From an uncultured Candidatus Saccharibacteria bacterium (lineage in GTDB: Bacteria; Patescibacteriota; Minisyncoccia; UBA6257; UBA9933), in assembly GCA_964642155.1 (NCBI GenBank), contig CAZXNT010000001.1, forward strand, positions 65,238-129,237: DNA of 64,000 nt, given 5' to 3'. The notes under the pieces were generated by a model. The model did no database searches and was not told the origin of the DNA. It saw nothing but the letters and a program-made list of their open reading frames with translations. Shown piece by piece: positions 3,138-46,075 of this stretch (its first letter is position 1; each line of letters opens with the position of its first letter). Position numbers and translations under genes: made by a program.

Positions 3138-5047
3138 TGCAATATTATGTTATCGCTGAATGTGTTTGAATAAGCGTTTGCCGCGTTGCGGAACCTCACA
3201 TAAACCGTTTTTAATCCGGCTCCGGCCGTTAAGGTCCAATTTCTCGTCGTTGAATAAGCTTCCCAAAAAGAGTTAAAGAAAACTATATCATTGGAAATCA
3301 TCATTTCCGTAACATTAACTATCCCGGAAGTGCTGGAAGCGGCGTTTAATCTTAATACTATATTGACATCCGTGGTTGTGTCCGCTCCGTCATTTATCGC
3401 AATCGGAGCGCTGCAAACCGCCAATCTTGCTGAAACAGCGCTGTTTTGAGCAATCGCGGCATCTAATCTGGCTTGCGCGTCTCTTATCGGGTCGTAAGTT
3501 GGATTAGTAATTTGTCTATTGGTCATATTCTGATTGCTTCTATTTATAAACTCGTTATAACGTTCTAAAATTACCGACCATGCCGCCGTGTCTGACGGGC
3601 TAGTCGCTCTAATGTCATTAATCAGCTGGTCGGCTTCCGATTGAGCGTCGCCTTGAGCCAAAAGATTGTCCACTTCGCTTTGAGCTGTTGCGATTTCATT
3701 CGCGCCGACTGAACATCCGCGAGATTGCATATCTTGAAACATCGCGAGTGTTGAACTTGCGTAAACTAATGTTTCTTGAGTTATGGATGACGTATCAACG
3801 CCTATGCCATTAGCCGCCGCCCTTCTAACTTCACCAATCATCATTTCTTTATCTTGCCCCTGCTCGCTCGCCCTCATATCGGCATATTCTTCGGGATAAT
3901 AATCCGGTTCCGCGTCCTTGTCCGATTCTTTCATTTCAGATAAACCTTTTTCCAATAACCGGTTAATCACTGCGTTAACCAAAGCCGAAACCCAAGAGCT
4001 GATATTGGCGGCCCATGCCGAATCGGTTGTAATGGCGCTGCCAACCGCGTCGCCAACAAGAGCGCCGGGCGTGGTTGTTTCCATATTCTTCGGGTCGCAA
4101 TACGCTCCGGTTGTGTCTTGTTTATAACCTTTATCACCCATCTCTTTATCAAATTGACCCCTTTTTTCTACACCCTTATCACTTTGCTCCCAATCTTTCA
4201 CGCATTTATTATAATCATCCTGCTTTTTTTTCACCGTTGCCTCATCATCAGTTCCCTTAAAAATTGGACTAGCGCACGCAGAATCAGAGTTTGCAGTAGC
4301 ATCCCAAGTAGTTCCCCCTCCTCCAGGTTGAACCTTGCCTTTATAATCCTTAGAAAATTCTGCCTCTTCTGCCGTCTTTTTACACCTTTCCACTCCTAAA
4401 AATCCTTTGCCTGACAACGCTTTTTGGCCGGCGACTTGAACTGCTTTGGCTTGTTTAAGCATTTTTTCGTCTTGTATCATCAGTGCCGCGCCGAAAAAAT
4501 TATTTTGCGGCTCCCAACTCGCCAAATATCCCTCCCAACCACCGACTGAAAAATCAACATAAAAATCCTTAATGTTTTTCACGGCTTTATCCAAGGTGCA
4601 AGAAACTCTCTGGCTGAATTTCGGCACCGGCAAAAACGCCAATTTCAATTGCAAACCGAACGGCGAACAAAGGTCCGCCAAAAGAAGGTCTCTTGATATG
4701 GATTCAAAAGCAATATCGCCGGCGTCTTTCAAAAATCCGTCCCAATCGGTTATAAATTTCGGGTCGCCGCCGCCCTGAACCCATTTGACGGTTTGGTCAA
4801 CGATATAATCTATAATGCGTTTAGCAACGATATCGCGCATCACTTCTTTCCAATTTGTTTTTATCCATTCAAATATACTTCTCCCTAACTTTCCAGCAAG
4901 TATTAGGAAATCAGTAACTATGTTTGAAAATGCCGCTTCCGCCTTATTAGGAGTCAATTTAAAAAATCCGGTTCTTAAAAATCCCGGGGAATTAAAAACC
5001 AGCAGAAAAATAATTAGAAAAATTATTGTTTTAGAAAAAAAGTTCAT
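3134..5047 (-). CDS. large secreted hypothetical protein (637 aa)
   Basis: N-terminal signal peptide MNFFSKTIIFLIIFLLVFNS. Cys-rich, Asp/Lys-rich middle region. Translationally coupled to its neighbours (ATGA overlaps at both ends). Confidence 0.5.
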   Translation of the reverse strand: MNFFSKTIIFLIIFLLVFNSPGFLRTGFFKLTPNKAEAAFSNIVTDFLILAGKLGRSIFEWIKTNWKEVMRDIVAKRIIDYIVDQTVKWVQGGGDPKFITDWDGFLKDAGDIAFESISRDLLLADLCSPFGLQLKLAFLPVPKFSQRVSCTLDKAVKNIKDFYVDFSVGGWEGYLASWEPQNNFFGAALMIQDEKMLKQAKAVQVAGQKALSGKGFLGVERCKKTAEEAEFSKDYKGKVQPGGGGTTWDATANSDSACASPIFKGTDDEATVKKKQDDYNKCVKDWEQSDKGVEKRGQFDKEMGDKGYKQDTTGAYCDPKNMETTTPGALVGDAVGSAITTDSAWAANISSWVSALVNAVINRLLEKGLSEMKESDKDAEPDYYPEEYADMRASEQGQDKEMMIGEVRRAAANGIGVDTSSITQETLVYASSTLAMFQDMQSRGCSVGANEIATAQSEVDNLLAQGDAQSEADQLINDIRATSPSDTAAWSVILERYNEFINRSNQNMTNRQITNPTYDPIRDAQARLDAAIAQNSAVSARLAVCSAPIAINDGADTTTDVNIVLRLNAASSTSGIVNVTEMMISNDIVFFNSFWEAYSTTRNWTLTAGAGLKTVYVRFRNAANAYSNTFSDNIILQ

Positions 5048-5883
5048 TTGATTTCCAACGCTTTTTCTTTATATTCTTGTTGAATTTTAAATTCCTCGTC
5101 AACCATATCAGGAATCATCTGCACTAATAAATCCGCTCTTATCGGGTCTTGCTTAAAAACCGTTATTCCCCGATATAAATTTTCAAATTTTTTAAACAGA
5201 ACCAAATATCTTTTATGAAGAGCAAGCCAATCAGAAGGAACCTCCGTATTTAAAAACCCGTTGAACATATTTTGATAAGTGTCGGCAAGATTATTGGCTT
5301 TGGAAATATCTCCGACAATCAAACTCTCTAAAACTTTAATCGGATTTTTATAAAGATTGTTTGAATTATTATAAATTATATTGATGGTCGCTTCAAGATA
5401 AATCATCTTCTTTTGGGAAGAATTATCGGAAGAAATTTTTAAATCTTTGTCGCTAATGGAATAATTTTCCAACAAAAGCGACGGGTCGCTGATTTTGGCG
5501 AGCGTTTGCTTAATCAACTCCTGTCCTTCCTGGCTTTGCGGGTCAAAACCGCTTGAAGGGTCAATACCCCTTTGGTCTAAATCTTTCATTTGCGTAAACA
5601 TTGATTGAGCGACAAATTCCGTTAAATTAATCTGATCGGCAACTTGGCTATTATTTAAATTTTCCGCCTGCCTGCTGGTAGGTATGGCCTTAATTTTTTG
5701 AAAATTATCTTTCACCCATTGAAGCGGATTCTTGCCGACCAAATCAACAAAATTTCCGGAAAAACCGTCCTTTGATTTCGCGCCGTCCGGTTTAATTCCG
5801 GCGCCGGATTTAACAATAAAATACGCTCCGACCAAACCGGCAATAATGATAAAAACCGCTTTTGCGGAAATAAATTTTTTCAT
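5044..5883 (-). CDS. membrane-anchored hypothetical protein, first gene of the operon
   Basis: Likely start is MKKFISAKAVFIIIAGLVGAYF (signal-anchor) at 5883. The ORF-track extension to 6189 has no start-like context and would overlap the plus-strand gene. Confidence 0.45.
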   Translation of the reverse strand: MKKFISAKAVFIIIAGLVGAYFIVKSGAGIKPDGAKSKDGFSGNFVDLVGKNPLQWVKDNFQKIKAIPTSRQAENLNNSQVADQINLTEFVAQSMFTQMKDLDQRGIDPSSGFDPQSQEGQELIKQTLAKISDPSLLLENYSISDKDLKISSDNSSQKKMIYLEATINIIYNNSNNLYKNPIKVLESLIVGDISKANNLADTYQNMFNGFLNTEVPSDWLALHKRYLVLFKKFENLYRGITVFKQDPIRADLLVQMIPDMVDEEFKIQQEYKEKALEIK

Positions 5884-7478: not shown

Positions 7479-8480
7479 TCAGCTATTAGATAAAGCGATG
7501 ATTCGCTCAACGCTCAAATTCTGCGGCCTCGCATTCGGCTCAACACCGATTAATTTTAATTTTTCAATAATTTCTTCTTTGATTTTTGTCTTATTTATAA
7601 TTTGTGGTTCATTTTTATTACATTGTGCCTGCGATAGCAGATCTAATGTAATATTATTTTTATTTACTTTATCTCCCGCTATCCTATCGGATAGCGTGCT
7701 ATCCGATAGGATAGCTGTATTTTTGCCCGCAATTTCTGACATTAAATTATTTACAATCGTCTTCCTCGGCTGTTTAAAAAGAATTTTGATAAATTTATAA
7801 TATTTCTCATTATTACATTTCAACCGCGATAGCAGTTGAAATGTAACCGGCGTTAATTTAATAATCGCGCTATCCACTTTCGGCGCCGGTTTAAAATCAT
7901 TACGCGACACATAACCGATAATTTTCGGCTCAGCCCAAATCTGAACGCTAGCTGCCAATAAATTAATTTGCGGCGACTTGGCGCAAACGCGCTCCGCCAC
8001 TTCTTTTTGAATTAATAAAACAATTAATTCCGGCTTGCCTGCCCCGCTGTGCCCCGTAGTGAGTTTTGCTCTACTACTGGTGTAAGAAGCTTGCTTTTCT
8101 TCAGAGTACTCCAACCCGCCCAAAATCCTGAATAAATAACCAGTTATGTAATAGGGGATATTACCAACGATTTTATAATTCTTAATTCTGAATTCTGAAT
8201 TCTGAATTAAACGCGGAAGCACTTTCAATGCGTCACCTTCAATAATTTCTATATTTTTATCTCCCTTAAATTTTTCTTTAAAATCTTCGGCTAATTTCTT
8301 ATCTTTCTCAATCGCAATAATTCTACATTCTGAATTCTGCATTCTTAATTCTTTAGTAAGTTCCCCATGCCCGGGCCCAATTTCAATCACAACATCGCCG
8401 TCTTTCAATTCCAACGCTTCAACAATTTTCCGCAATTTCTCCTTATTTTTCAAAAAATACTGTCCAAGATAATTTCCCAT
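7479..8480 (-). CDS. ksgA: 16S rRNA (adenine1518/1519-N6)-dimethyltransferase KsgA/RsmA, carrying several in-frame repeat insertions
   Basis: Conserved motifs GQYFL, VVIEIGPGHGELT and GNIPYYIT. At 333 aa it is longer than typical KsgA. The extra segments correspond exactly to DNA repeats (two 34-bp palindromes, two GAATTCT tracts, one ATCCTATCGGATAGC palindrome). Confidence 0.85.
   Translation of the reverse strand: MGNYLGQYFLKNKEKLRKIVEALELKDGDVVIEIGPGHGELTKELRMQNSECRIIAIEKDKKLAEDFKEKFKGDKNIEIIEGDALKVLPRLIQNSEFRIKNYKIVGNIPYYITGYLFRILGGLEYSEEKQASYTSSRAKLTTGHSGAGKPELIVLLIQKEVAERVCAKSPQINLLAASVQIWAEPKIIGYVSRNDFKPAPKVDSAIIKLTPVTFQLLSRLKCNNEKYYKFIKILFKQPRKTIVNNLMSEIAGKNTAILSDSTLSDRIAGDKVNKNNITLDLLSQAQCNKNEPQIINKTKIKEEIIEKLKLIGVEPNARPQNLSVERIIALSNS
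7813..7846. repeat. 34-bp palindromic repeat TTACATTTCAAC-CGCGATAGCAG-TTGAAATGTAA. Family copies also at 7618-7651, 8515-8548, 9206-9239, 16057-16090 and 44096-44129.
   Basis: Read directly. Conserved core CTGCGATAGCAG flanked by TTACATT/AATGTAA arms. Three copies lie in-frame inside ksgA and the Mur ligase gene, three are intergenic. Confidence 0.85.
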
Positions 8481-8581
8481 TAATATCTATCATATCTATA
8501 AATATTTCATCAAATTACATTTCAACCGCGATAGCAGTTGAAATGTAATTTAAATTTATAATTTATATTATATAATTTGAT

Positions 8582-9193
8582 TTAATTAAATTCAGAAAAA
8601 ATTTTTTCGTCATCTATTTCGCCAACAGTTATAATTCTAATATGATTTTTTAATTTTTTATTAATAATTTCTTTATATAATTCTTTTGATAACGGCCATT
8701 TGCCGATAAAAACGCTTTTTTGAAACGGCCGATATCCCAACCCAAATAATTTGAATCGCAACCATTCTCTTTCTTTTTTTATTTTTTCCGGAATATCAAA
8801 CATTACAATTCTCCATTTTCCATCCCATTCTTTTTTTTTATTATTTTGTTGAATTTTTTTAAAATATTTTAATCCCAATAAAGTCAATTTATATTGTTCA
8901 TCATTTTTTTCAATTAATCCTTTTTGTTGTAAACGATATAAAATAACTTTTGCGTTATTCTTTTTTAAATTTTTAAGAAATTCTTTAATCTCAATATAAT
9001 CGGAAATAAAATCTCTACTATTCCTCATCCCAAAATCAAAAGCTCCGCCCACTCCCATTCTATTACTCATTAATATTCCTTCTCCTGTTTTAATAATTCC
9101 TTGCCCAATTCCAAAAATAACTGCCAAACTTGCCGCTCCTAAACTATATGGTAAATCTTTAAATTGTTCTTTAATTCTTTTTCCTCCTTTCAT
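8582..9193 (-). CDS. PaaX-like winged-helix regulator (Cas2/VapD-fold C-terminal domain)
   Basis: C-terminal motif WDGKWRIVMFDIPEKIKKEREWLRFKLFGLGYRPFQKSVFIGKWP resembles the PaaX signature. N-terminal wHTH ILYRLQQKGLIEK. Bracketed on both sides by copies of the 34-bp palindrome. Confidence 0.4.
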   Translation of the reverse strand: MKGGKRIKEQFKDLPYSLGAASLAVIFGIGQGIIKTGEGILMSNRMGVGGAFDFGMRNSRDFISDYIEIKEFLKNLKKNNAKVILYRLQQKGLIEKNDEQYKLTLLGLKYFKKIQQNNKKKEWDGKWRIVMFDIPEKIKKEREWLRFKLFGLGYRPFQKSVFIGKWPLSKELYKEIINKKLKNHIRIITVGEIDDEKIFSEFN

Positions 9194-9248
9194 CTTTCTA
9201 TTTTATTACATTTCAACCGCGATAGCAATTGAAATGTAACCAAGTAAA

Positions 9249-11120
9249 TCAATACTCAATATAACGCTCTTCGTCGTCCAGAAAATCGCTTAATGTTTCA
9301 AATTTATCGCGATTATTACTTGTAAACTCCACTGTTTCCGGAGCGATTTCATAAAGAAAACGCGAGGGGAAATTATAGAAATTTAAAAATAATTCTTTTT
9401 TGGCGCGTGTCATCGCCACATACATCAAACGGCGCTCTTCTTCAATTTCTTCATCATTATGATATGACATTTGGTGCGGCAACAGTCCTTCATTACAACC
9501 AACGATAAAAACCGCGTCAAATTCAAGCCCTTTGGCCAAATGAATCGTCATTAAATTTATAATATTTTGAGATTTATCTACTAATAGGCGAGATTGAGAA
9601 TCTAAAATTTGAGATTTTTTTATGGCATCACTTGATTGAAAAAGCGAGATTTTTTCAAGAAAATCTTGCAAATTATTGAATTCCGAAGCATAATAAATAA
9701 GTTCATTAATGTTTTCCTCGCGTTCGCGAAAATTATCGTAATTCTTTTTTAATTGGTTTAAATATCCTGTGATTTCCAAAATAAAGCTAATTAACTCAAC
9801 TGGCGGAAGTTTTCCGGTCATTTTCGGAATTTTATCTTGAATTTCCAAAAATGGTTTTTTCAAAAAATTGGTTTTTATTCTCTCAAAACTGACCGTATCG
9901 TTCGGATTAAACGCCCAACGAAGAACCGCCACAATGTCTTTAATTTCTTTGCGTTCATAAAATTTCACGCCGCCGAAAATCTTATAAGCGATGTCGTTTT
10001 CAATAAACGCGCTTTCAATGGCGCGCGACTGCGCGTTAGTGCGATAAAGTATGGCGATAGATTTATTAGAAATTGCCTCCCTTCGGGAGGTCTCCCGCAG
10101 GGAGAGAAATTGGAAATTGGAAATTTTTTCCGCTATCCACTCCGCTTCCCCGTCTTCATCATAATGTTCAATCGCTTTTACCAAATTGCCATCGTCATTT
10201 TCCGTCCAAAGATTTTTATGCTTTTGAAATTTATTTTTGGCTATCAAAGAAGAGGCAGCCTTGATGATGTTGCCGGTTGAACGATAATTTTGTTCTAAAA
10301 AAACGGTTTTTGTTTTCGGCCAATCTTTTTCAAAATTCAAAAAAATTTTAAAATCCGACCCCCTAAATTTATAAATTGACTGTTGGTCGTCTCCGACAAC
10401 GCTTAAATTTTTATGTCCACTAGCCAATAATTTTACAAAAACATATTGCGCCGTATTTGTATCCTGAAATTCGTCAACAAGAATATAACGGAATTTTTTC
10501 TGATATTTTTCAAGAATATCCGGATGATTTTTAAAAATTTTTACCGGCTCCGTGATTAAATCGTCAAAATCAAAAGCATTATTTCTCCGCAGGGTCGTTT
10601 CATATTCCTTAAAAAGAAATTTGACAGTATCATCTTCACTCTCGGGATCGGATAATTCACTTTTAATCCGTGAAAATTCTTTTCGTAAAAATAACGGGTT
10701 AACCTCCTTCTTTTTTTCGTATTCCGAAAAATTAAGATTTTTAACAATTGTTTTTATGAGCCGGAGTGAGTCATCGCCGTCAAAAATGGAAAAATTCGGC
10801 GTTCGGCCGACAAATTTAACTTCGTTTTTTAAAATTCGCGCCCCGAGAGAATGGAAAGTGCCGATGAACGGCTGAACTTTATTTTTTATTCTTAATTCAT
10901 TATTCATTATTCTATTTTTCATTTCTTCCGCCGCCTTATTGGTAAAAGTGATGGCCACAACGCTCTCTGGATCAACTCCGGAAGCCAAAATAGCCGCCAA
11001 ACGGCTGGTTAAAGCCCTGGTTTTCCCGCTTCCGGCTCCGGCAACTATCAAAATCGTCCCCTCTAAGTTTTCCACAGCCTCCTGTTGCTTTTTGTTAAGG
11101 CTTTGATATAATGGGTTCAT
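9249..11120 (-). CDS. uvrD: ATP-dependent DNA helicase UvrD/PcrA family
   Basis: Q-motif and Walker A LNKKQQEAVENLEGTILIVAGAGSGKTRALT. UvrD blocks FTNKAAEEM and YRSTGNII. The likely start is MNPLYQSL at 11120 rather than the ORF-track 11225. Contains an in-frame hairpin element at about 10069-10127. Confidence 0.85.
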   Translation of the reverse strand: MNPLYQSLNKKQQEAVENLEGTILIVAGAGSGKTRALTSRLAAILASGVDPESVVAITFTNKAAEEMKNRIMNNELRIKNKVQPFIGTFHSLGARILKNEVKFVGRTPNFSIFDGDDSLRLIKTIVKNLNFSEYEKKKEVNPLFLRKEFSRIKSELSDPESEDDTVKFLFKEYETTLRRNNAFDFDDLITEPVKIFKNHPDILEKYQKKFRYILVDEFQDTNTAQYVFVKLLASGHKNLSVVGDDQQSIYKFRGSDFKIFLNFEKDWPKTKTVFLEQNYRSTGNIIKAASSLIAKNKFQKHKNLWTENDDGNLVKAIEHYDEDGEAEWIAEKISNFQFLSLRETSRREAISNKSIAILYRTNAQSRAIESAFIENDIAYKIFGGVKFYERKEIKDIVAVLRWAFNPNDTVSFERIKTNFLKKPFLEIQDKIPKMTGKLPPVELISFILEITGYLNQLKKNYDNFREREENINELIYYASEFNNLQDFLEKISLFQSSDAIKKSQILDSQSRLLVDKSQNIINLMTIHLAKGLEFDAVFIVGCNEGLLPHQMSYHNDEEIEEERRLMYVAMTRAKKELFLNFYNFPSRFLYEIAPETVEFTSNNRDKFETLSDFLDDEERYIEY

Positions 11121-11169
11121 TAGTACAATAGTAAGCAAAATTAAATATTTAGCAAATAAAGCGGAAAAA

Positions 11170-11808
11170 ATGAGATTTGACTGCCTCGCTATGCTCTGGT
11201 GGGGACTTTTAATTTTAGCGGTCATTACGGTAAATTTCGCTTCAAATAAGGCTAATTTGAACGTTTCTTTTGTTAAAAACAGTCTCGGTGGTCCGAGCGA
11301 AGAATATCAGCGCCAACATCAAGACGCTCTTTTGGCAGCCACGGCATTAGCGCAAGGAATTCCGGAAGAAACTTCCCAAAACACCTATTCCGACGCTCTT
11401 AATACCAAAAATTCTCCAATTAATCAAAAAATCAATAAAAAATCAAATAAATTACGGATTTCCCCTCCGACTATCGGCTGGAATTGGGGACAATTACACA
11501 CTTTTAACGCCGTTGACATTGCCAACCGTTGTGGCACGCCAATATACGCGGTAAAAGACGGAATTATCACTGAAATAAATGACGATAATAGTTGGAATAA
11601 CGGTTATGGAAATTCCATTACTATGGAGCATTCAAATAATATTGAAACGCTTTATGCGCACCTTGAAAAAGTTCAAACTCAAATCGGCCAATACGTAAAA
11701 GAGAAAGAGCTTATCGGTTATATGGGCAGTACCGGCAATACGGACGGCCCGACTGGCTGCCACCTCCATTTTGAAGTTCACGGCGCGGAAAACCCGTTGG
11801 CAAATTAA
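11170..11808 (+). CDS. M23 family metallopeptidase (lysostaphin-like), secreted
   Basis: N-terminal hydrophobic segment. Catalytic motif LYAHLEKV...GYMGSTGNTDGPTGCHLHFEVH (HxH). Confidence 0.8.
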   Translation: MRFDCLAMLWWGLLILAVITVNFASNKANLNVSFVKNSLGGPSEEYQRQHQDALLAATALAQGIPEETSQNTYSDALNTKNSPINQKINKKSNKLRISPPTIGWNWGQLHTFNAVDIANRCGTPIYAVKDGIITEINDDNSWNNGYGNSITMEHSNNIETLYAHLEKVQTQIGQYVKEKELIGYMGSTGNTDGPTGCHLHFEVHGAENPLAN

Positions 11809-13382
11809 CTCTTCTCTCTCACCCTATATTGAAATGCCTCCGCCAAGTGATTGCCTTTTATTTTTTCCGAATTTTCCAAATCGGCGATTGTTTGAGCGAT
11901 TTTTAAAACTCGGTAATATCCCCTGGCGGAAATAAAAGATTTTTCCATTATATTTTTTAATACTGATTCCGCGTCATCGGCCAACGCAACTATTTCATCA
12001 ACCATTTTTGAACTCATTTCGGAGTTTAAATAAATTTTCGGCCTAGTTTTCACAAAACGATTCTTCTGAATTTCACGCGCTTTTAAAACCGCCTCTTTTA
12101 TTTTTTTATTAATATTATTATCGCGGCTCGGCGCTTCTTTTCTTAATTCTTCTATTTTTATTCGTGGCACTTCAATTTGAATATCAATTCTATCCAGAAG
12201 CGGACCGGAAATTTTCTTTTGATAACGAAAAACTTCGTTCGCCGTGCATTGGCATTCTTTTTCCGGCGTTTCAACTCCGAAATAACCGCAAGGGCAAGGA
12301 TTCATCGCCGCCACCAAAGAAAATTTCGCCGGAAAATCAAGTGAGCCCTTGGCGCGAGAAATACAAACATTACCGCTTTCCAATGGCTGACGTAAAGATT
12401 CTAAAAGGTCGCGGCGAAATTCCGGAATTTCATCAAGAAACAAAACTCCCCGATGCGCCAAACTTATTTCTCCGGGCTTGGGATTCGCTCCGCCACCAAT
12501 AACCGAAACCATTGAAGCTGAATGGTGTGGCGCCCGAAACGGCCTAAAATTCACGAACGGATTATTGCCCAAAGCGCCAGCAGCGCTGTAAATCTGCGTT
12601 GTTTCAATGATTTCGTCTAGCGAAGGCAAAGGTAAAATCGAAACTAAGGCCTGAGCCAACATTGTTTTGCCGGCTCCCGGCGGTCCAAACATTAAGATAT
12701 TATGTCCGCCGGCAGCCGCTACCGTTAAAGCCCGCTTGGCGCTTTCCTGCCCCTTAATGTCCGAAATATTAACTAACGACTCTTCATTTGTTGAATCAAA
12801 TTCAATCTTGAACGGCTTTTGAAAAACCATTTCTTTTCTTTCTTCAAGAAAATCAATCAATTCAATTAAATTTGAAACTGGAACAATATTTATTCCTTTT
12901 ATAATCGCGGCTTCAGCCGCGTTTTCTTTCGGTAAAAATAAAAATTTAAATCCGAGTTTTTTTGCCAAACGGCTGATGCTTAAACTTCCGGAAATCTGCC
13001 TTAATCCCCCGTCTAAAGAAAGTTCGCCGATGAAAATTTTATCCTTAGTTTCAAAATTTTTAATTTGTTTAGTGGCCAGTAAATAGCCGGTGGCAATCGC
13101 CAAATCGTATTGCGAACCGGTTTTTTTAATGTCAGCCGGCGCGAGATTAACCGTAATTTTTCTGTTTTCTTTTGTCGGCGGCTTGATGCCGGAATTTTTT
13201 AAAGCCGAACTTACGCGCTCTTTCGCCTCTTTCAACGCCCTATCTGCCAAACCGACTATATTAAACGAATGAAGACCGACGTTAATGTCGGTCTCCACTT
13301 CAATAAGCCTGGCGTTAATTCCTTCAAGTTCAGCTGAATAAACTTTAGAGAAATTTTTCATAGTATTCGCGAATAATGCCAA
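11805..13382 (-). CDS. comM: YifB/ComM family Mg-chelatase-like AAA+ ATPase
   Basis: Walker A MFGPPGAGKTMLAQAL. Overall ComM-like layout. C4 cluster CPCGYFG...CQC. Confidence 0.85.
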   Translation of the reverse strand: MALFANTMKNFSKVYSAELEGINARLIEVETDINVGLHSFNIVGLADRALKEAKERVSSALKNSGIKPPTKENRKITVNLAPADIKKTGSQYDLAIATGYLLATKQIKNFETKDKIFIGELSLDGGLRQISGSLSISRLAKKLGFKFLFLPKENAAEAAIIKGINIVPVSNLIELIDFLEERKEMVFQKPFKIEFDSTNEESLVNISDIKGQESAKRALTVAAAGGHNILMFGPPGAGKTMLAQALVSILPLPSLDEIIETTQIYSAAGALGNNPFVNFRPFRAPHHSASMVSVIGGGANPKPGEISLAHRGVLFLDEIPEFRRDLLESLRQPLESGNVCISRAKGSLDFPAKFSLVAAMNPCPCGYFGVETPEKECQCTANEVFRYQKKISGPLLDRIDIQIEVPRIKIEELRKEAPSRDNNINKKIKEAVLKAREIQKNRFVKTRPKIYLNSEMSSKMVDEIVALADDAESVLKNIMEKSFISARGYYRVLKIAQTIADLENSEKIKGNHLAEAFQYRVREKS

Positions 13383-13438
13383 TTTTTTATCAATAATGCG
13401 AATAAATTATTAGCATTATTTGCGAGCAATTCGCATTA

Positions 13439-13759
13439 TTAGCGATTACTCTTGCATTCCCGGCACAATTTTGATTCCGGGCTTATTCCAAGAATTTCCG
13501 CGGAGATTTCTTTTTTACAATTTTCGCAAACTCCGTATTTGCCATTATTGATTTTTTCCAAAGCCGATTCAATATCAGATAAACGCTCTTTTAAAGTTTG
13601 GACAATGGACATCACGTTGCCGTATTCTTCGGATTCATCGGTTTCTTCATCCGGGTCCACATCGCTGCCGAAATCGGCAATCCCTTTGTGTTTTTTTAAT
13701 TCTTCCAAAACTTCCTGTTTTTCTTTTTCAAGTTTTTGTTTAAATTCAATGGTATTCAT
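13439..13759 (-). CDS. DksA/TraR family C4 zinc-finger protein
   Basis: C-terminal CENCKKEI...CRECK C4 motif preceded by an acidic coiled coil. Confidence 0.65.
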   Translation of the reverse strand: MNTIEFKQKLEKEKQEVLEELKKHKGIADFGSDVDPDEETDESEEYGNVMSIVQTLKERLSDIESALEKINNGKYGVCENCKKEISAEILGISPESKLCRECKSNR

Positions 13760-13769
13760 AAATTATAAA

Positions 13770-14114
13770 TTACAACAATTTCAATGCCAAATTATACGCT
13801 AAAAATCCCAATCCCGCAACCGCTATTATCATGATTACAACTATAATTATTATTTTTAACGAAGACTTGGCTTTGGTAACTTCGCCGGCTGTCGCCCTCA
13901 CTTCTCCCGTAGACGCGAAAATTCCTTGTTCCGAACCAACATATCCCGGCACGCCAATATTAATTTTCATTTCCTCAACAGCCGCCGGTTTTTTATCTTC
14001 GGCTAATTTTACAAACTGCATAGAAGTCGCGTCGCCGCCGCTGGCTTTAATCGCCGCAATGTCGGACTTCATTGTCCTGATTTCAATATCCTGATTTTGA
14101 GAATTATTTTCCAT
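13770..14114 (-). CDS. hypothetical tail-anchored membrane protein
   Basis: ORF with a C-terminal TM helix (IIIIVVIMIIAVAGLGFLAY). No recognisable family. Confidence 0.35.
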   Translation of the reverse strand: MENNSQNQDIEIRTMKSDIAAIKASGGDATSMQFVKLAEDKKPAAVEEMKINIGVPGYVGSEQGIFASTGEVRATAGEVTKAKSSLKIIIIVVIMIIAVAGLGFLAYNLALKLL

Positions 14115-14150
14115 TTTTGAATTATATTCAAATTTTTAAAATCACGCAAA

Positions 14151-15056
14151 TTATCTTCTTCTCCTGCCATGAAACGCTTTATGAACTTCGCGAAGTTCTT
14201 TATTGGTTAAGTGAGTATAAATTTGAGTTGTTGAAATATTGGAGTGGCCGAGCAATTCCTGCACCGAGCGCAAGTCCGCTCCGCCGATTAAAAGGTCAGT
14301 GGCAAATTGATGACGCAACTGATGAGGAGATATTCTTTCAAAAATTCCGGCTTTACGACTGTAAAAATCAACTAATCTTTGCGCCGTTCTCGGTAAAATT
14401 CTACCGATAATTTTAGAAGAATTTTTATTCAAACTGATAAATAACGCTTCTTCAATATCTCCACGCTTATCCAAATAATTTTTAAGCGCTTTTTTGGCGC
14501 GTTCGGAAAGAAAAACTACTCGTATTTTGCCGCCTTTGCCACGAACCGTGATTTCACCGCGGTCAATGTCTATGCGCCTATCCAGCGAACAAAGTTCGGA
14601 AATGCGCAAACCGGTTGAAAACAACATTTCCAAAATAGCCTTATCCCGCAAAGATTTTAAATCATCTCCCTGCGGCGCGTTAAGCAACCGTTCCATGTCT
14701 TTATACTCAACTATCTTAATCTGGCGTTCGGGAATTTTCGGCAATTCAATTTTATCCGGCGACAAAACATTATAATCATTTTTAATCAAATATTTTAAAA
14801 AATTCCTTAAAGCGATAATATAATAAGATTGCGTCGTTTTTTTAAGATATTCTCCCTTTTCATTCTTCATTCGTGCCAAATGCAACCGAAAATTTTTTAT
14901 CTTATCAACATCAATGTTTTTTTCGCTTTTAATTCCGCTAAATTTAAAAAAAACTTTAAGATAACGCTCGTAATTTTCCCGCGTTTTTAAAGAACGATTT
15001 TTTTCTATTTCAAGATAATCAAGATAATTTTGAAAAAGATTTTTAATGTCCGCCAT
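14151..15056 (-). CDS. xerD: tyrosine site-specific recombinase XerC/XerD
   Basis: Catalytic box ISPHQLRHQFATDLLIGGADLRSVQELLGHSNISTTQIYTHL with R..H..R..Y. Confidence 0.85.
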   Translation of the reverse strand: MADIKNLFQNYLDYLEIEKNRSLKTRENYERYLKVFFKFSGIKSEKNIDVDKIKNFRLHLARMKNEKGEYLKKTTQSYYIIALRNFLKYLIKNDYNVLSPDKIELPKIPERQIKIVEYKDMERLLNAPQGDDLKSLRDKAILEMLFSTGLRISELCSLDRRIDIDRGEITVRGKGGKIRVVFLSERAKKALKNYLDKRGDIEEALFISLNKNSSKIIGRILPRTAQRLVDFYSRKAGIFERISPHQLRHQFATDLLIGGADLRSVQELLGHSNISTTQIYTHLTNKELREVHKAFHGRRRR

Positions 15057-16046
15057 TTATTTTCTTTTTATGGCGCACTTCGCCGCTTTAATAATACTTT
15101 CCACACCCAAGCCATATTTTTCAATTAATTCTTCGGGCTTGCCGCTTTCGCCGAAACAATCCTGCATTCCGATAAATTCCATCGGCACCGGATAATTCTT
15201 TGCCAAAACTTCCGCCACCGCTCCGCCTAATCCTCCTAAAACATTATGTTCTTCCACGCTCACGACAGCCCCGCATTTTTTCGCAAGTTCAATGATTTTT
15301 TTATCGTCAATCGGCTTAATGGTATGATTATTTAAAACAATTGTTCCAATGTCTTCTTTTTCCAATTCTTTCGCCGCTTGCAAAGCATTATGCAAAACAG
15401 GGCCACAGCCGATTATAACGACTTGCGGTTTTTTAGATTGCCAAAAAATTTCCGCTTTTCCGGGAACAAACGGTGTTTCTTCGGTCGTAATAACCGTTGT
15501 TTTCTCGCGGGCAAAACGCAAATAAACCGGTCCCCAGATTTGCGCGACGGCGATTGTGGCTTTTTTCGCTTCAATCGCATCACAAGGAACAATCACTTTC
15601 ATATTCGGCATCGCCCGCATAGTGGTAATATCTTCAATCGCCTGATGAGTAGCGCCGTCCGGCCCCACGGAAACGCCGGCATGCGCACCGCCGATTTTCA
15701 CATTAGAATCGTTATAAGCGATTGTCGTTCTAATTTGCTCCCAATTTCTGCCCGGAGAAAAAACTGCGTAAGAAGAAATAAAAGGAATTTTTCCGGAAAC
15801 GCCCAAGCCGGCCGCTATTGCCGCCATATTCTGTTCAGCCACGCCCATTTCAAAAAATCTTTCCGGAAATTTTTTCGCAAACCAATGGCTCCGCGTCGAT
15901 TCTTTTAAATCCGCGCATAAGACAACAACATTTTTATTTTCCTCGCCGGCAATTAAAAGCCCTTCACCGTATCCGTCGCGCGTCGGTTTTTTTGCCGCAT
16001 CCTTTTCAAAAATTTTATTATTTAATTTTATTTCTTGATTAATCAT
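15057..16046 (-). CDS. tktB: transketolase, C-terminal (pyrimidine-binding) subunit
   Basis: Split transketolase. Pyr-binding and C-terminal domains. Sits immediately downstream of the N-terminal subunit gene. Confidence 0.85.
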   Translation of the reverse strand: MINQEIKLNNKIFEKDAAKKPTRDGYGEGLLIAGEENKNVVVLCADLKESTRSHWFAKKFPERFFEMGVAEQNMAAIAAGLGVSGKIPFISSYAVFSPGRNWEQIRTTIAYNDSNVKIGGAHAGVSVGPDGATHQAIEDITTMRAMPNMKVIVPCDAIEAKKATIAVAQIWGPVYLRFAREKTTVITTEETPFVPGKAEIFWQSKKPQVVIIGCGPVLHNALQAAKELEKEDIGTIVLNNHTIKPIDDKKIIELAKKCGAVVSVEEHNVLGGLGGAVAEVLAKNYPVPMEFIGMQDCFGESGKPEELIEKYGLGVESIIKAAKCAIKRK

Positions 16047-16109
16047 TAATTTAAAATTACATTACGACTGCTATCGCAGGTGTAATGTAATTATTAAAAT
16101 TTTTAATTA

Positions 16110-16970
16110 TTATTCATGTTCGGATTTAATCTGGCCTCCCAATGTCCGTAATTCATTTAATGCTTTTTTCGCCTGTTCTTTATCCGGAGGAATGCCGTGC
16201 CACAAATAATCCTGCTCCATAAAACTCACGCCCTTGCCGGGAATTGTATGTGCGATAATTACAGTCGGTTTTTCAAAAATCGCCTTAGCTTCATTACAAG
16301 CGTCAACAATCTGTTCAATATTATGACCGTCAATTTCCAAAACATGCCAGCGGAACGCTTCGTATTTTTCTTTCAAAGATTCCAATGGCATGACATCTTC
16401 GGTAAATCCGTCTATCTGGATATTATTTCTGTCAATAATCGCCGTAATATTACTTAATCTGTTTTTTCCGATAAACATCGCCGCTTCCCAAGTATTGCCA
16501 CAATTCTGCTCGCCATCGGACATTAAAGAATAAATCCGATGTTTTTTATTATCTAATTTAGCAGCCAAAGCAAAGCCTGCGGATTGCGACAATCCCGAGC
16601 CCAAAGGCCCGGAAGTTGTTTCAACTCCCGGCAAAGCGCCGCGGTGCGGATGCCCCTGCAAGCGCGAATTTAATTTTCGCAAAGTTTTCAATTCTTCTAT
16701 ATCAAAATATCCGACTCGCGCCAATGTCGCATATTGAACCGGACAAATATGTCCGTTTGATAAAATTAATCTATCCCTGTCCGGCCAAACCGGATTTTTT
16801 GGATCATGATTTAAAATATGAAAATATAAGGCTGTAAAAACATCGGCCATTCCCAAAGGCCCGGCTGAATGACCCGAACCGGCCTCAACGAGCATTTCAA
16901 TAATGTTCTGGCGAATTTGATTCGCTGTTTCTTCTAAAAATTTAAGTTTTCTTTCGTGTAATAATTCCAT
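16110..16970 (-). CDS. tktA: transketolase, N-terminal (TPP-binding) subunit
   Basis: GHSAGPLGMADVFTALYF and SNGH ThDP-binding motifs. Confidence 0.85.
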   Translation of the reverse strand: MELLHERKLKFLEETANQIRQNIIEMLVEAGSGHSAGPLGMADVFTALYFHILNHDPKNPVWPDRDRLILSNGHICPVQYATLARVGYFDIEELKTLRKLNSRLQGHPHRGALPGVETTSGPLGSGLSQSAGFALAAKLDNKKHRIYSLMSDGEQNCGNTWEAAMFIGKNRLSNITAIIDRNNIQIDGFTEDVMPLESLKEKYEAFRWHVLEIDGHNIEQIVDACNEAKAIFEKPTVIIAHTIPGKGVSFMEQDYLWHGIPPDKEQAKKALNELRTLGGQIKSEHE

Positions 16971-16972
16971 AT

Positions 16973-17629
16973 TTATATCGCCGCTAATTCTTTATAAACC
17001 TCTTGTGGATTGCCGCTTTCCCAAATATACGAACCGACCGCTAAAATATCAACTTCGGCTTCTTGGCATAATTTCGCGGTTTCCAAATTTATGCCGCCGT
17101 CAACTTCTATTATAACATCGGAAAATTTTTTCTTCAAAAATTTTATCTTATCCAAAACCTGCGGCTGAAATTTCTGACCGGACAATCCGGGATTAACAGC
17201 GAGTATTTGCACAAAATTCCTGCTTCTATTGATAGAAGCAGATAAAAAGGGAATTAAATTTTCAACCGATGTATCGGGATTTATCGCCAACCCGATTTCA
17301 ACGCCACTTAAAACTTTTAAACTTTGAAACTCTAAAACTTTAACTGCTTCCAAATGAACAATTATTCTTCTCGCCCCAGCCTTAATCCAATCGCCAATAA
17401 CCACTAATGGATTTTCAACCATTGAATGAACTTCGAGATTAATTTTCAATTTCCAATTTTCAATTTTCAATTTCTCTAAATCTTTTAGTTGATTCCAAGT
17501 TTTATGCGCAGTAAATTTGCCATCCGCGATATCAATCTGAACCCACTCCGCGCCAAATTCTACGGCTTTTTTTAATTTTTCCGCAACGCAGGCAAAATCG
17601 CCGCAATTTATCGTCGGAATAATTTTCAT
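16973..17629 (-). CDS. rpe: ribulose-phosphate 3-epimerase
   Basis: MKIIPTINCGDFA...VQIDIADGKF and the barrel motifs. Contains an in-frame (CAATTTT)n tract. Confidence 0.8.
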   Translation of the reverse strand: MKIIPTINCGDFACVAEKLKKAVEFGAEWVQIDIADGKFTAHKTWNQLKDLEKLKIENWKLKINLEVHSMVENPLVVIGDWIKAGARRIIVHLEAVKVLEFQSLKVLSGVEIGLAINPDTSVENLIPFLSASINRSRNFVQILAVNPGLSGQKFQPQVLDKIKFLKKKFSDVIIEVDGGINLETAKLCQEAEVDILAVGSYIWESGNPQEVYKELAAI

Positions 17630-17681
17630 TCCAATTAATGATACCGTAATTAAAACAAAACAAAAAGACCGATTACTCGGC

Positions 17682-18311
17682 CTAGTGGAAATTTCTAAAT
17701 TTATTTTTCATTATTATTTTGACATTTTTCATGTCAAAATAATCGGTTTCTTTAAAAAAATCATAATTCATAACGGAAAAAGGGGAGCCGTGATATCCGT
17801 CATAATCTATCGCTCCGAAAAGATGTCCGATTTCATGAGCTATAATCCGCTTTTCAAAAAAAGCGTCATCGCTTACTCCCACTAACGCATAATTTCCCAA
17901 ATATTCAGCCACACCCATCCACCAAAGATAATTTGTCTTTTGATCAGTAAAAGCCACAACAATGTCTATTTCTGGCATTATCTGGAATTTCCTTTTTACT
18001 TCATTAAGCATTGCCCTTTTATCATCACTATCCGACTCCGAACTCCATTCTTCAAAATCTTTCAAAATAAATTTAATTCTAAATTGATTTTCATAAATAA
18101 CCGAGACTTCATTAAATAAATCAACTATTCTTTCTTCCGAATTTTTATTTTTTTGCTTATATTTGTCATCAATAACAACTTTAACAATAATAATTCTAAT
18201 ATATTCATTGCCTATTCCCAAATCTTTGTAAGTAAAAATTTTTTCCGCGACGCAACCGAACATAAAAATAACAAGGGTTAAAATGACTCCCAGTCTTTTC
18301 AAAAATTTCAT
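17682..18311 (-). CDS. lipoprotein zinc metalloprotease (HEXXHXXGXXD, snapalysin-type motif)
   Basis: Lipobox FMFGC. Zinc-binding motif HEIGHLFGAID. Confidence 0.55.
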   Translation of the reverse strand: MKFLKRLGVILTLVIFMFGCVAEKIFTYKDLGIGNEYIRIIIVKVVIDDKYKQKNKNSEERIVDLFNEVSVIYENQFRIKFILKDFEEWSSESDSDDKRAMLNEVKRKFQIMPEIDIVVAFTDQKTNYLWWMGVAEYLGNYALVGVSDDAFFEKRIIAHEIGHLFGAIDYDGYHGSPFSVMNYDFFKETDYFDMKNVKIIMKNKFRNFH

Positions 18312-18353
18312 TTTCTGCCTCCTTATTTAAAAATTAAAGAACGTTTATTTTGT

Positions 18354-19561
18354 CTAAGATTTAACACAATAAACAGGATCGTCGCAATTCACTCTATAAA
18401 TAATTCCATCTTCATCATTTTCGAATAAGAGATTATTTTTATCTTCTAAAATAGCGCCTAAAATATAACTTTGACCGTCATCGCTGATACTATATGAATA
18501 AAATCGAATTGTTTTATCTTTATCTTTAATTAAAATGTCTTTTAAAAAATGCAATGAATTAGCTATGACGAGTGATTTCCCGTCAAATTTCAAATAGTCG
18601 CTTTTTGAAGCACTTGGATAATATTTTTTTGCAAGGTAATAATCGTTTAAATAAATCTGAATTTTGGAAAAATCAGACATCACCTGTTGTGCGGGATGCG
18701 CTTTTTGTTTAATTTTATTAAATCCAATACCAACTACTGACGCAAACAACACAAACAATATTATTAATAACGCTATAATCGCTCCAAATGTCGCGCAAAA
18801 AACAAAAAATCTCTTTTTAGTTTTAATCGGTTGATTAACTAACTCCGGCTTAAGCGAAATTAATGAGCGATATAAAATAAAGGAGTAAGCCACGGCAAAT
18901 GGCAATAATAAGAATGTGTATAAAATCTCATCTACTAATACTAATAAAGTATTATCTATAATATTTTTGTTAAAAATATCAAACGGGGAAATAATCACAA
19001 AACTAATACCAGTTATTATTAATGAACAAATTAATATTCTCCAAAAAATCTTCCACCAACAACCAGCCACATAATCTTTGCTTCTTAGAAGCGCTTGTAG
19101 ACCATATAAATTTTGGTCAATTAAAATATAGGCGGCAAAAATGAACCAGACGCCAAAAATGAAAATTGGAATAATCCCCATTACTAATCCGCCTAAACCA
19201 ATAAAAAAGCCAAGAACAACAAGCCATAAATAAGATTTGAATTTTGAAAGAGCTGATTTATAGGCGGCAATTACACCTAAGGATTCATCACAAAAAGCGC
19301 AAATTAAAGCCAACGGAGTAAATAAAAACAAAATAATAAACCAGCTAATCAGAATTATAAAACCTATTATTACTAAAAATATGTTGCTTTCAAAAACATA
19401 GGTGATTTGCAATAGTACCGAAAAAACAAATGGTAGTAAGCTAATAAAAATTAGTGTCTTAAAGCGATTCTTATATATTAACCAAGAAGACCCAAAAAGT
19501 TGACGGATAGAAATTAAAGATTTATTTGTGTTATTTAATTTTTGAGCTTTGAATTCGTCCA
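18354..19561 (-). CDS. polytopic membrane protein with C-terminal extracytoplasmic domain
   Basis: Multiple TM helices. The likely start is MDEFKAQKL at about 19561. The ORF-track extension to 19631 runs into the duplicated gap 3' fragment. Confidence 0.45.
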
Positions 19562-19583
19562 TTTTTAATTTAATTATATTGTT

Positions 19584-19667
19584 TCCGCCGCTTTCAAAAC
19601 GTGCTTTTTCAGCATTGCCACATATCCCCATTCGTTATCGTACCAGGAAAGAATTTTCACCAAATTC
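19584..19667. repeat. 84-bp direct repeat, identical to 20182-20265 (duplicated 3' end of gap)
   Basis: Identical strings tccgccgctttcaaaacgtgctttttcagcattgccacatatccccattcgttatcgtaccaggaaagaattttcaccaaatt at both positions. The DUF4258/DUF2283 pair lies between them. Confidence 0.9.
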
Positions 19668-43404: not shown

Positions 43405-44826
43405 TTATATTATTACATTGTGGGCTTTTTTATTTTCCAAAATTTCCTCCACGATTTTTTTTTCGTCCCACGGAATTTTTTTATTGCCCGCAACGCACAT
43501 TGACGACTCCCCTCCCTTCCCCGTTAAAATAACAACATCTCCTTTTTGCGCCAAAAACAGCGCCTTTTTAATCGCTTCTCTCCTATCTATAATTTCATAA
43601 ATTTTGGAAATTGGAAATTGTCTGGCTTCGCCAGATCTCGCGAAGCGAGAGAAATTGGAAATTCCAGATTTTATTTCCGATAAAATCTGGCTGGGTTTTT
43701 CGTCATATGGGTCTTCATTCGTCAAAATAACTTCATCGCAATATCGCGTTGCTATTTCGCCCATTTTCGGCCTTTTCCATTTATCCCGTCCTCCGCCCTG
43801 CGCCCCCAATAAACATATCAACTTTGAATTCTGAATTCTGAATTCTGAATTCTGAATTGTTTGATATACTGCTTCCAAACTCACCGGTTCATGGGCGTAA
43901 TCAACAATCACGGTAAAATCACTTACCTTGATAATCTCCATTCTGCCTGCCGGCGATTTTGCCTGCGCCAACGCTTCTTTTATTTTTTCAATCGGGATAT
44001 TTAGCGACAAAGTAACCGCAATCGCCGCCACGGCATTATAAACATTAAATTCCCCAACTAATAGTATTCCAATAATTAATGGTATTTCAATTTTATTACA
44101 TTGCATCTGCGATAGCAGATGTAATGTAACTTCGAATTTTGTTTTATCTGAATATAATTTAATATTTTCTACTTCTAAAATTTTATTTACTTTTGACTTT
44201 TGATTTGAACTTTTGACTTTTATTCCGTATCCGTATTTATTTTTAATTTCCGGTTTTAAAAAATATTCAACGTTTTCATCGTCTAAGTTATAAATCCCAA
44301 CACCATTTTTCTTTCGTGCCACTCTTTCAAATAATTTTATTTTTGCGTTCCGATAATTTTCAAAACCGCCGTGCCGTTCAATATGTTCAGGCGATAAATT
44401 TGTAAAAACCGCGATATCATAATCAATAAAACGATGTCTGTATTGCAAAATCCCCTCTGAAGAAGTTTCTACCACCGCGTATTCGCATTTTTCCGCAACC
44501 ATTTGCCTCAGCAATTTTTGCAGCTGAAACCTGCCGAGCATTGTCTGCTTTGATTCGTTTTTCCATTCCCGCTCGCCTATCCGAAAATCCACCGTGGTTG
44601 CCATTCCGACTTTATGGCCGCTGAAATTCAAAATTTGAGCGATTAAATTGCAAGTGGTGGTTTTTCCTTTGGTTCCGGTAACACCGATGACTTTCATTTT
44701 GTGAGACGGAAAACCATAAATCAAGGCTGAAAAAAATGCCAGAGAAAAATGATAAATCGGCTGGCCGAGCCGATATAAAAATTTCGGAATAATATGTTTT
44801 TCAAAAAATCTTAAAATTTTCTCCAT
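43405..44826 (-). CDS. murE: Mur ligase family protein (MurE-like), with in-frame repeat insertions
   Basis: VIGVTGTKGKTTT P-loop, NLSPEHIERHGGFENYRNAK and a C-terminal GGGRDKWKRP Mur-ligase motif. Contains a 34-bp palindrome, a (GAATTCT)4 tract and a double-hairpin element. Confidence 0.7.
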   Translation of the reverse strand: MEKILRFFEKHIIPKFLYRLGQPIYHFSLAFFSALIYGFPSHKMKVIGVTGTKGKTTTCNLIAQILNFSGHKVGMATTVDFRIGEREWKNESKQTMLGRFQLQKLLRQMVAEKCEYAVVETSSEGILQYRHRFIDYDIAVFTNLSPEHIERHGGFENYRNAKIKLFERVARKKNGVGIYNLDDENVEYFLKPEIKNKYGYGIKVKSSNQKSKVNKILEVENIKLYSDKTKFEVTLHLLSQMQCNKIEIPLIIGILLVGEFNVYNAVAAIAVTLSLNIPIEKIKEALAQAKSPAGRMEIIKVSDFTVIVDYAHEPVSLEAVYQTIQNSEFRIQNSKLICLLGAQGGGRDKWKRPKMGEIATRYCDEVILTNEDPYDEKPSQILSEIKSGISNFSRFARSGEARQFPISKIYEIIDRREAIKKALFLAQKGDVVILTGKGGESSMCVAGNKKIPWDEKKIVEEILENKKAHNVII

Positions 44827-44827
44827 T

Positions 44828-46075
<1,248 letters not shown>

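Follow-up and report, generated by a model that had tools for sequence, protein, structure and literature searches.

Two protein-coding genes in a 64,000-nucleotide stretch of DNA from an uncultured Candidatus Saccharibacteria bacterium (contig CAZXNT010000001.1; the whole stretch is called the window here, and its G+C content is ~38%) carry small double hairpins, one in the gene for a UvrD/PcrA-like helicase (uvrD; module 1) and the other in the gene for a MurE-like Mur ligase (module 2). Each of these loci is probably a gene-less DNA micro-palindrome of 30 bp that was inserted, without duplication of the target, into a (GGAAATT)~4 microsatellite that was already in place. Each module lies in the middle of an array of about four GGAAATT units, in frame with its host gene, and the arrays of relatives are either empty at the same position or occupied by other palindromes. 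The best protein matches of the window point to a Wolfebacteria-like member of the Patescibacteria. In Table 1, we have listed the parts of the two loci.

The two modules and their host genes

At both loci the core (10076-10105 in uvrD and 43621-43650 in the Mur ligase gene) consists of two abutting, perfect hairpins with the geometry 6-3-6. The original prediction, made from the letters of the window, had described two loci at which a double hairpin flanked by GAAATTG is inserted in frame in these genes; this layout is present at both, and in both the hairpins prove to be a discrete insertion, while the lengths that it gave for stems and core needed correction, as all four stems measure 6 bp, the loops 3 nucleotides (nt) and the core exactly 30 nt. 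In module 2 the loops of hairpins a and b are reverse complements of each other, and the hairpin junction reads AGATCT, with GATC inside it. Folded as single-strand DNA, the window modules give z ~ -3. By our own arithmetic, 12 Watson-Crick pairs at this fixed geometry have a chance of ~6e-8 per position, or ~0.004 sites expected per window, and a scan for adjacent hairpins found no further GC-rich pair in the 64-kb window besides the two loci. A covariance model (R1), trained on 29 modules that include both window copies, so that their match is partly by construction, finds these copies at E ~3e-7 on either strand, with the next match at E = 1.6; searched with filters off, R1 returned only the two known copies in the window and none in L122-L127, among which are the uvrD relatives discussed below. 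The window from 8519 to 19613, which includes locus 1, is 100% identical in an independent Logan assembly (SRR13723396), which makes an assembly artefact at locus 1 unlikely.

Table 1. Parts of the two loci, in window coordinates
Feature	Position	Strand	Basis or remark
Host gene 1, UvrD/PcrA-like helicase	9249..11120	-	Open reading frame in frame through module 1; protein matches
Heptamer unit GAAATTG, left of module 1	10069..10075	+	One of 4 array units; array unbroken in L122
Module 1 hairpin a, CCTCCC-TTC-GGGAGG	10076..10090	.	Sequence, adjacent-hairpin scan, folding, covariance model
Module 1 hairpin b, TCTCCC-GCA-GGGAGA	10091..10105	.	10076-10105 is a 30-nt indel, missing in L122, L126 and L127
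Heptamer units GAAATTG GAAATTG GAAATT (GAAATTGGAAATTGGAAATT), right of module 1	10106..10125	+	Sequence
Host gene 2, MurE-like Mur ligase	43405..44826	-	Open reading frame in frame through module 2; protein matches
Heptamer units GGAAATT GGAAATT G (GGAAATTGGAAATTG), left of module 2	43606..43620	+	Sequence
Module 2 hairpin a, TCTGGC-TTC-GCCAGA	43621..43635	.	Sequence, adjacent-hairpin scan, folding, covariance model
Module 2 hairpin b, TCTCGC-GAA-GCGAGA	43636..43650	.	Sequence
Heptamer units GAAATTG GAAATT (GAAATTGGAAATT), right of module 2	43651..43663	+	Sequence

The region of module 1 translates as ...ISNFQFLSLRETSRREAISN... in the UvrD/PcrA-like protein and that of module 2 as ...ISNFSRFARSGEARQFPIS... 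in the MurE-like protein. Module 1 falls in a variable loop that has an EAEWIAEKI segment on one side and a conserved IAILYRTNAQSR segment on the other, and an alignment with PcrA (1PJR) places an 8-residue gap in PcrA at this site. The site of module 2 is a loop of very variable length ahead of a ...YEIIDRREAIKKA segment. Among 120 orthologues per gene, compared at the protein level, the loops occur without any array, with an array only, or with an array and varied GC-rich inserts, and the arrays themselves differ in their unit (ISNFQFP, IPNSKFQ, IQNSEFR, IRNPKSE and others). An exact-protein index look-up returned no record for the uvrD open reading frame (ORF; taken from its first start) or for the Mur ligase ORF.

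Filled and empty sites in relatives

The DNA of the uvrD region of relatives was retrieved by way of their UvrD proteins and compared with the window. In the closest of these relatives, L122 (91% amino acid identity in UvrD; aligned blocks 83-96% identical at the nucleotide level, ~89% in the two largest), the coding strand reads AATTTCC AATTTCC AATTTC^C AATTTCC, and the window has exactly 30 nt extra at the position marked ^. Both arrays have four units, with nothing duplicated or lost, and the immediate flanks differ only by one C-to-T change in the next heptamer unit. The array is likewise empty in L126 and L127 (83% amino acid identity), and in L123 and L125 it holds a different, decaying palindrome of the CCTGCC type, C[C/A]TGCCTACCGGCAGGCAGG. 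A second uvrD array, composed of GAATTAT units, is empty in the window and in L122 and has a 21-nt palindrome between two units in L125 and L126. The Mur ligase array is empty in L248, where four units run on unbroken. In the window, L054 and L250 it is filled, each time at the same AATTTC^C position, by a 30-nt module that differs among the three, and L249 has a single 16-nt hairpin. At three arrays for which filled and empty sites could be compared, the number of heptamer units is the same with and without a palindrome. The GAAATTG repeats are thus not a target duplication, an idea that the original prediction had raised for checking; a 7-bp duplication would also break the reading frame, since 30+7 or 21+7 nt would shift it. 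Because relatives hold these arrays empty or with different palindromes, the arrays appear from such comparisons to be old, evolving landing pads in length-tolerant loops, and the hairpin modules to be younger, repeated arrivals.

Several other indels were seen in the same alignments. Between the window and L122 there are other in-frame indels, among them inserts of 69 nt and 63 nt in the window (8038-8106 and ~13366-13428), and a 15-nt in-frame insert at 17219-17233 pairs with the sequence next to it to complete a hairpin (CTGCTTCTATCAATAGAAGCAG). A second hot spot for insertions lies in uvrD at ~10641-10647, outside the heptamer arrays, and is empty in the window; L122 has a 21-nt CCTGCC-type palindrome there and L126 an unrelated 33-nt hairpin.

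Heptamer arrays of about four to five units exist independently of the modules, in L122, L126 and L248 and at eight further places in the window (8177-8208, 8319-8352, 10877-10923, 17441-17475, 43825-43858, 44189-44221, 46032-46060 and 59506-59541). Seven of these eight lie within protein-coding genes (KsgA, UvrD, Rpe, Mur ligase, M23 peptidase and others) and are read in frame; the array at 8319-8352 has a stop in every frame, and no ORF spans it. Seven is also the commonest exact tandem period in the window that is not a multiple of three. Across relatives the unit number of the Rpe array stays the same, and in L122 and L126 the KsgA arrays are made of wholly different units. A role as a phase-variable contingency locus was considered and rejected, unit number being conserved among relatives at the array that was checked. 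Heptanucleotide microsatellites are known from other bacteria: the short tandemly repeated repetitive (STRR) sequences of Calothrix and Nostoc and the GGGAATC repeats of Xanthomonas are dispersed over the genome and prefer about four units, and heptamers are over-represented among bacterial simple sequence repeats (PMC4692102). The arrays described here resemble these in their tandem 7-nt units, their preference for about four of them and their dispersal; unlike those arrays, which are mainly intergenic and G-rich and for which G-quadruplexes have been proposed, they are AT-rich, intragenic and in frame, and they host palindromic modules.

A family of modules in other genomes

Two pattern scans of public genomes and metagenomes, with a pattern that demanded GAAATTG flanks, returned more than 240 loci, and the family figures given below hold among the matches listed. 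Many of these loci are plain heptamer runs from many phyla, and a large subset have GC-rich palindromes between the heptamers. The sources of this subset are contigs labelled as belonging to the Candidate Phyla Radiation (CPR), namely Saccharibacteria, Jorgensen-, Magasanik-, Uhr-, Roizman- and Doudnabacteria and Parcubacteria, together with unlabelled metagenome contigs. At least 29 distinct double-hairpin 30-mers could be extracted. The original prediction had set a test beforehand, namely a covariance-model search for further copies and covariation among them; the window held no third copy, whereas other CPR contigs commonly hold copies of the same layout, and these showed covariation, in a test that is in part circular, as discussed below, so that neither of the outcomes that would have refuted the prediction came about.

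The coding context of 27 of the 29 modules was examined at 30 non-orthologous GAAATTG-flanked sites. All 30 lie inside long stop-free frames and none is extragenic; the modules run opposite to the gene at 24 sites and with it at 6, all three frames are used, and the flanking heptamer units sum to four at 21 of the 30. Modules of other lengths were also listed (21, 24, 27, 33, 36 and 39 nt), all of them multiples of 3. Frame-preserving lengths together with sites in ORFs are the signature of translated insertions that have been filtered for an intact frame, as is known for the Rickettsia palindromic elements (RPEs) to which we return below. Translational bypass or excision from RNA need not be invoked, as all copies are stop-free and preserve the frame.

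Some modules recur. An identical 30-mer occupies three unrelated sites (L151, L183 and L205); module 1 is near-identical to the module of L193 and, in inverted orientation, to that of L166; and module 2 is close to that of L188, with one compensated change from T-A to C-G. L111 carries two copies of one module 123 nt from each other, of which one is in a GGAAATT array and the other outside any array, and in L187 related modules occupy two arrays, of GGAAATT and of TAGTTTG units. Pairing has been lost in older copies (L123, L125 and L210), and there is consequently no sign that selection on the host keeps the structure. A search of IMG/VR for a GGAAATT-flanked module gave 0 matches, so that carriage by phages is not supported.

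Symmetry and covariation of the modules

Across the 29 modules, the consensus is a 15-mer, T-C-[C/T]-S-S-C NNN G-S-S-[G/A]-G-A (in short TCCSSC-NNN-GSSGGA), present twice, in which positions 2, 6, 10 and 14 of each hairpin (C2, C6, G10 and G14) are almost invariant. The first three letters of a module are TCC, TCT or CCC; among the 58 hairpins, 53 have T at position 1 and the others C, and 57 have C at position 2 and one has T. The 5' arms are 88% pyrimidine, and 337 of 348 pairs (97%) are Watson-Crick, the remainder being 4 G·T pairs and 7 mismatches of other kinds. Within a module the two hairpins have their stems in common (5.2 of 6 positions the same, versus 4.2 of 6 between modules); their loops are never identical (0/29) and are exact reverse complements of each other in 7 of 29 modules, versus ~0.45 expected. 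GATC stands at the hairpin junction in 24 of the 29. The covariance model scores both strands equally. The module is, then, a degenerate 30-bp palindrome built from two smaller palindromes, and its symmetry is at the level of DNA. As a side observation, a gene for an N6/N4 DNA methylase lies at 51482-52294 in the window, and GATC is the central tetranucleotide of those same 24 modules.

The observation in the original prediction that stems differ while their pairing is kept extends to the whole set: pairing is intact in 98% of cells, and both sides are changed in 72, as compared with 22.8 in shuffles, none of 500 shuffles being as high. The set had been chosen for pairing, so that the test is partly circular, and its members are independent insertions and not orthologous descendants; for these two reasons the covariation is not evidence for a conserved RNA.

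How the modules may move, and alternative readings

Each of the two modules is a stop-free sequence of 30 nt and belongs to a diverse family that is spread across the Patescibacteria. If the modules are insertions of the kind that we favour, each would be translated along with its host gene, giving a housekeeping protein 10 more residues in a loop that tolerates changes of length, and only copies that preserve the frame would survive in these gene-dense genomes. Members of the family would be copied between sites, with the heptamer arrays acting as preferred landing pads, and the conserved pairing would reflect a need at the DNA level, or a product, of the copying (a hairpin or cruciform) and not a function of host RNA. 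Candidate routes for this mobility can be suggested from the comparison of sequences. The leading one, at somewhat less than an even chance, is that a single-strand hairpin would be inserted at slipped or replicating arrays by a candidate enzyme acting in trans, HUH/RAYT-like or other. Short-homology template switching or gene conversion between arrays would be about half as likely, with other routes making up the remainder. Template switching or gene conversion between arrays is weakened, as is conversion through array homology as the sole route, because one of the L111 copies lies outside any array and modules occur in arrays of other units. For the host the elements are most likely neutral or selfish; as a possible side-effect, a module may stabilise an array by interrupting it.

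Several points weigh against this reading. No enzyme or donor was found, and a Pfam scan of ~50 window ORFs of at least 105 amino acids, which looked for transposase, HUH, reverse transcriptase (RT) and integrase domains, found no transposase, HUH or RT gene in the window and only an XerC/D-type recombinase and the N6/N4 DNA methylase (the host genes for UvrD and the Mur ligase were recognised by other means). There are only two copies in the window and they differ from each other, and 29 sequences at ~30 sites are more diversity than is usual for a copy-and-paste family. The near-universal flanking by heptamers (27/31) and the phase of insertion were partly built in by the GAAATTG-flank pattern. 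The empty sites could be precise excisions, and not the ancestral state; the case for movement is made on assembled sequences and not on read-level evidence of present-day movement; and part of the preference for arrays could arise if arrays mark protein loops that tolerate any insertion.

An explanation close to one offered in the original prediction is that the modules are miniature IS200/IS605 derivatives (palindrome-associated transposable elements, PATEs), or repetitive extragenic palindromes (REPs) or their paired form, REPINs, moved by a Y1 HUH transposase (TnpA/RAYT) whose gene lies elsewhere in the genome, with the heptamer as the cleavage or target sequence. We regard this as unlikely. 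It would account for the precise gain or loss without target duplication, for abutting hairpins whose near-identical stems and different loops resemble a minimal left-end/right-end pair, and for insertion just 3' of ...TTG, CTG or TAT in all cases seen (the pattern forced TTG for most). A total of 30 nt, however, leaves no room for the guide and cleavage sequences that IS200/IS605 elements have in the case of IS608; all 30 copies examined are intragenic, single-hairpin and 21-nt variants occupy the same arrays, and no TnpA or RAYT gene was found in the window. Compensated stem changes between related copies have been reported for REPINs (PMC3116915) and are seen here, but the GTAG/CGTC tag of REPs (PMC3733652) is absent from modules that start with TCC, TCT or CCC.

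The formation of the palindromes in place, by fold-back or template-switch synthesis while a slippage-prone heptamer array is being repaired or replicated, would make the modules non-mobile and their pairing a by-product of mutation. The nested symmetry, in which hairpin 2 approximates the reverse complement of hairpin 1 and the loops are exact reverse complements in the 7 of 29 modules given above, the almost exclusively Watson-Crick pairing, the very high sequence diversity between sites and the 15-nt indel at 17219-17233 would all suit such an origin. It is nevertheless improbable: 30-mers that are the same or nearly so turn up at sites and in contigs that have no relation to each other, the modules share the consensus TCCSSC...GSSGGA, and a GC-rich module that has no sequence in common with its AT-rich flanks cannot be a fold-back copy of them. 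Still less probable is the reading of the original prediction, in which selection acts on structure rather than sequence; on such a reading the host would keep the element as a pair of hairpins in the mRNA (for pausing or stability) or as a DNA-binding or recombination site, stems being free to vary if they stay paired. The 98% pairing with its many double-sided changes, the fold z-score, the near-invariance of C2, C6, G10 and G14, the usual central GATC and the presence of modules with different stems at the same Mur ligase position in the window and in L054 could be taken in its favour. Such selection is not required, however. The closest relatives of both genes are without the module, the same array holds different palindromes in different lineages, decaying copies (L123, L125 and L210) show no repair, and the modules stand in host genes of unrelated function and, across the family, point either way along the gene and use all three of its frames. 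The pairing is DNA-like, with strands that score alike and G·T no commoner than other mismatches, and the near-invariant positions mean that sequence is conserved as well; the covariation, as noted above, comes from a set chosen for pairing. For an RNA, a recombination site or an IS200/PATE substrate, all suggested at the outset, we found no evidence, Rfam at the gathering score giving five tRNAs only and no match at the modules, and the window being without transposase, HUH or RT genes.

Comparison with known small repeats

A search of the literature available to us found no description of such modules or motifs, nor of such elements in CPR. RPEs, from Rickettsia, are ~100-150 bp long and have a sequence that is conserved within each family. 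The modules fall outside that size and sequence class, at 30 nt and with ~4 near-invariant positions per 15-nt hairpin. They are like RPEs in that the palindrome lies inside protein-coding genes, in permissive parts of the protein, leaves the ORF intact and carries no gene; they differ from those elements, which belong to alpha-proteobacteria and are not tied to tandem heptamers, in being 30 nt long, diverse in sequence, located in microsatellites and hosted by Patescibacteria. RPEs are described as palindromic repeats in frame inside the genes of a reduced genome, translated through, with no gene of their own and no known mechanism (Ogata et al. 2000, as summarised in PMC3184786).

The small dispersed repeats (SDRs) of Nostoc punctiforme are hairpin-forming repeats, 21-27 nt long, that break up sequence which is contiguous without them, and one of them, SDR5, inserts between nt 3 and 4 of the iterated sequence HIP1, GCGATCGC, which contains GATC (PMC5861425, PMC4390886). 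The modules are similarly very small hairpins inserted precisely into a short iterated sequence, and filled and empty sites at three arrays likewise place hairpins within sequence that is contiguous in close relatives. Unlike these cyanobacterial repeats with their HIP1 landing sites, the modules are mostly intragenic, land in a heptamer array and form a nested 30-bp palindrome, a distinction drawn from published descriptions and not from the sequences of SDR1-8. To our knowledge, the origin of very small repeats such as SDRs and RPEs has gone unexplained since they were described. Members of the IS200/IS605 PATE class have subterminal hairpins at the left and right ends, guide and cleavage sequences and a length of ~100 nt or more, unlike two abutting 15-nt hairpins that have no spacer and total 30 nt. 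REPs, bacterial interspersed mosaic elements (BIMEs) and REPINs, with their RAYT transposases, are GC-rich palindromes of 20-40 nt that form inverted doublets and show compensatory stem changes (PMC3116915, PMC3733652). All three of these traits are shared by the modules, which differ in not being extragenic, in having neither a GTAG/CGTC tag nor a spacer between the arms, and in the lack of any RAYT found in the window. Taken together, these comparisons suggest an element that would work most like RPEs and Nostoc SDRs and shares features with REP/REPIN doublets, and that would belong to neither RPEs nor REPs by the tests that define them. These very small palindromic insertions have a tie to heptanucleotide repeats that runs across phyla.

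An unrelated 20-nt palindrome and other repeats

A further palindrome of 20 nt, CCTGCCTGCCGGCAGGCAGG, bears no relation to the 30-nt module. In genes it measures 21 nt (20+1), so that the frame is kept, and 21-nt in-frame variants are present as indels in the genes of relatives, including L122 (~10471) and the uvrD genes of L125 and L126. Decayed copies are probably present in the window as well, to judge from their letters, at 5667-5687, 32174-32194 and 33398-33418 (in the genes for a DUF11 protein and RecO). A search of IMG/VR with no requirement for flanks found 35 stretches with exact copies, mostly on high-GC contigs and with several per contig. The palindrome falls exactly on the junction of a period-7 direct repeat at 5 of 40 sites, as compared with 0.4% in the control, and since CCTGCCTGCCGGCAGGCAGG, unrelated as it is, is also enriched on such junctions, the preference for landing pads is general. 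We raise, as a doubtful but interesting idea, that the 30-nt modules and CCTGCCTGCCGGCAGGCAGG may both be products of an undescribed, gene-less process of DNA insertion that has a built-in period of 7 bp. Such a process would target heptanucleotide junctions across the genes of Patescibacteria and high-GC phage contigs, and might itself seed the repeats.

Three copies of CCTGCCTGCCGGCAGGCAGG in viral contigs (L282 ~515, L252 ~8616 and L275 ~2284) appear, by eye from their flanks, to lie within tRNA genes, one in D-loop-like sequence (GGTAGCTCAGTTGGTA^GAGC) and two where the variable loop of a tRNA with anticodon CAU would be. A 177-amino-acid ORF between CCTGCCTGCCGGCAGGCAGG copies in L251 and L280 was considered as an enzyme gene and set aside; neither Pfam nor PHROG gave a match for it, and it has the look of an antisense artefact. 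The 174-amino-acid ORF on the opposite strand looks like a real gene, with an N-terminus that by eye is lipoprotein-like, and an upstream ORF resembles, also by eye, a capsid protein.

Other repeats were seen in passing. A second family of small palindromes, TTACATT...C(T)GCGATAGCAG...AATGTAA, is found in the window at 8517-8548, 44095-44130, 7620-7667 and ~16066-16100; of these copies one falls between genes, another within the Mur ligase ORF, and a third is, in comparison with L122, an in-frame indel of 48 nt. An intergenic copy of 50 nt in L122 (~4163-4212) is missing from the window, and a complex palindrome at 7678-7715 (GCTATCCTATCGGATAGC...) adjoins one copy of this family. Contigs labelled as Deltaproteobacteria, Desulfobacterales or Aminicenantes, and metagenome contigs without a label, have a conserved repeat of ~100 nt (L014, L034, L036, L041, L047, L086, L132, L138, L148, L093 and >15 others), made up of a REP-like hairpin with a GTAG tag (GTAGCCGTTCACGGCT), then GAAATTR heptamers and then a conserved tail (...GGGAGAGATTAAAATAGAAATTGGAAATTGGGAAGAACAGTACAAAAGCATGAA). 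In L093 the GTAG-tagged hairpins alternate with heptamer runs.

Implications

Elements far below the size of known transposons colonise housekeeping-type genes, such as those for a helicase, a cell-wall ligase and RecO, in very small bacterial genomes, where their insertion adds 7-10 residues to protein loops. For those who annotate CPR genomes, the modules are a source of noise in predicted proteins, in the form of low-complexity inserts of the ISNFQFP or PAGRQ type, and they are at the same time sharp markers at the level of strains. Families of palindromes that have been inserted independently mimic covariation and can pass for conserved RNA structures. The link to heptamers provides a sequence-level lead on the mechanism, in a class of repeats that is over-represented in bacteria and little studied. 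If a 7-bp-periodic insertion process does in fact underlie the modules and CCTGCCTGCCGGCAGGCAGG alike, it would constitute a new class of mobile DNA and not a relative of REP, RPE or IS200.

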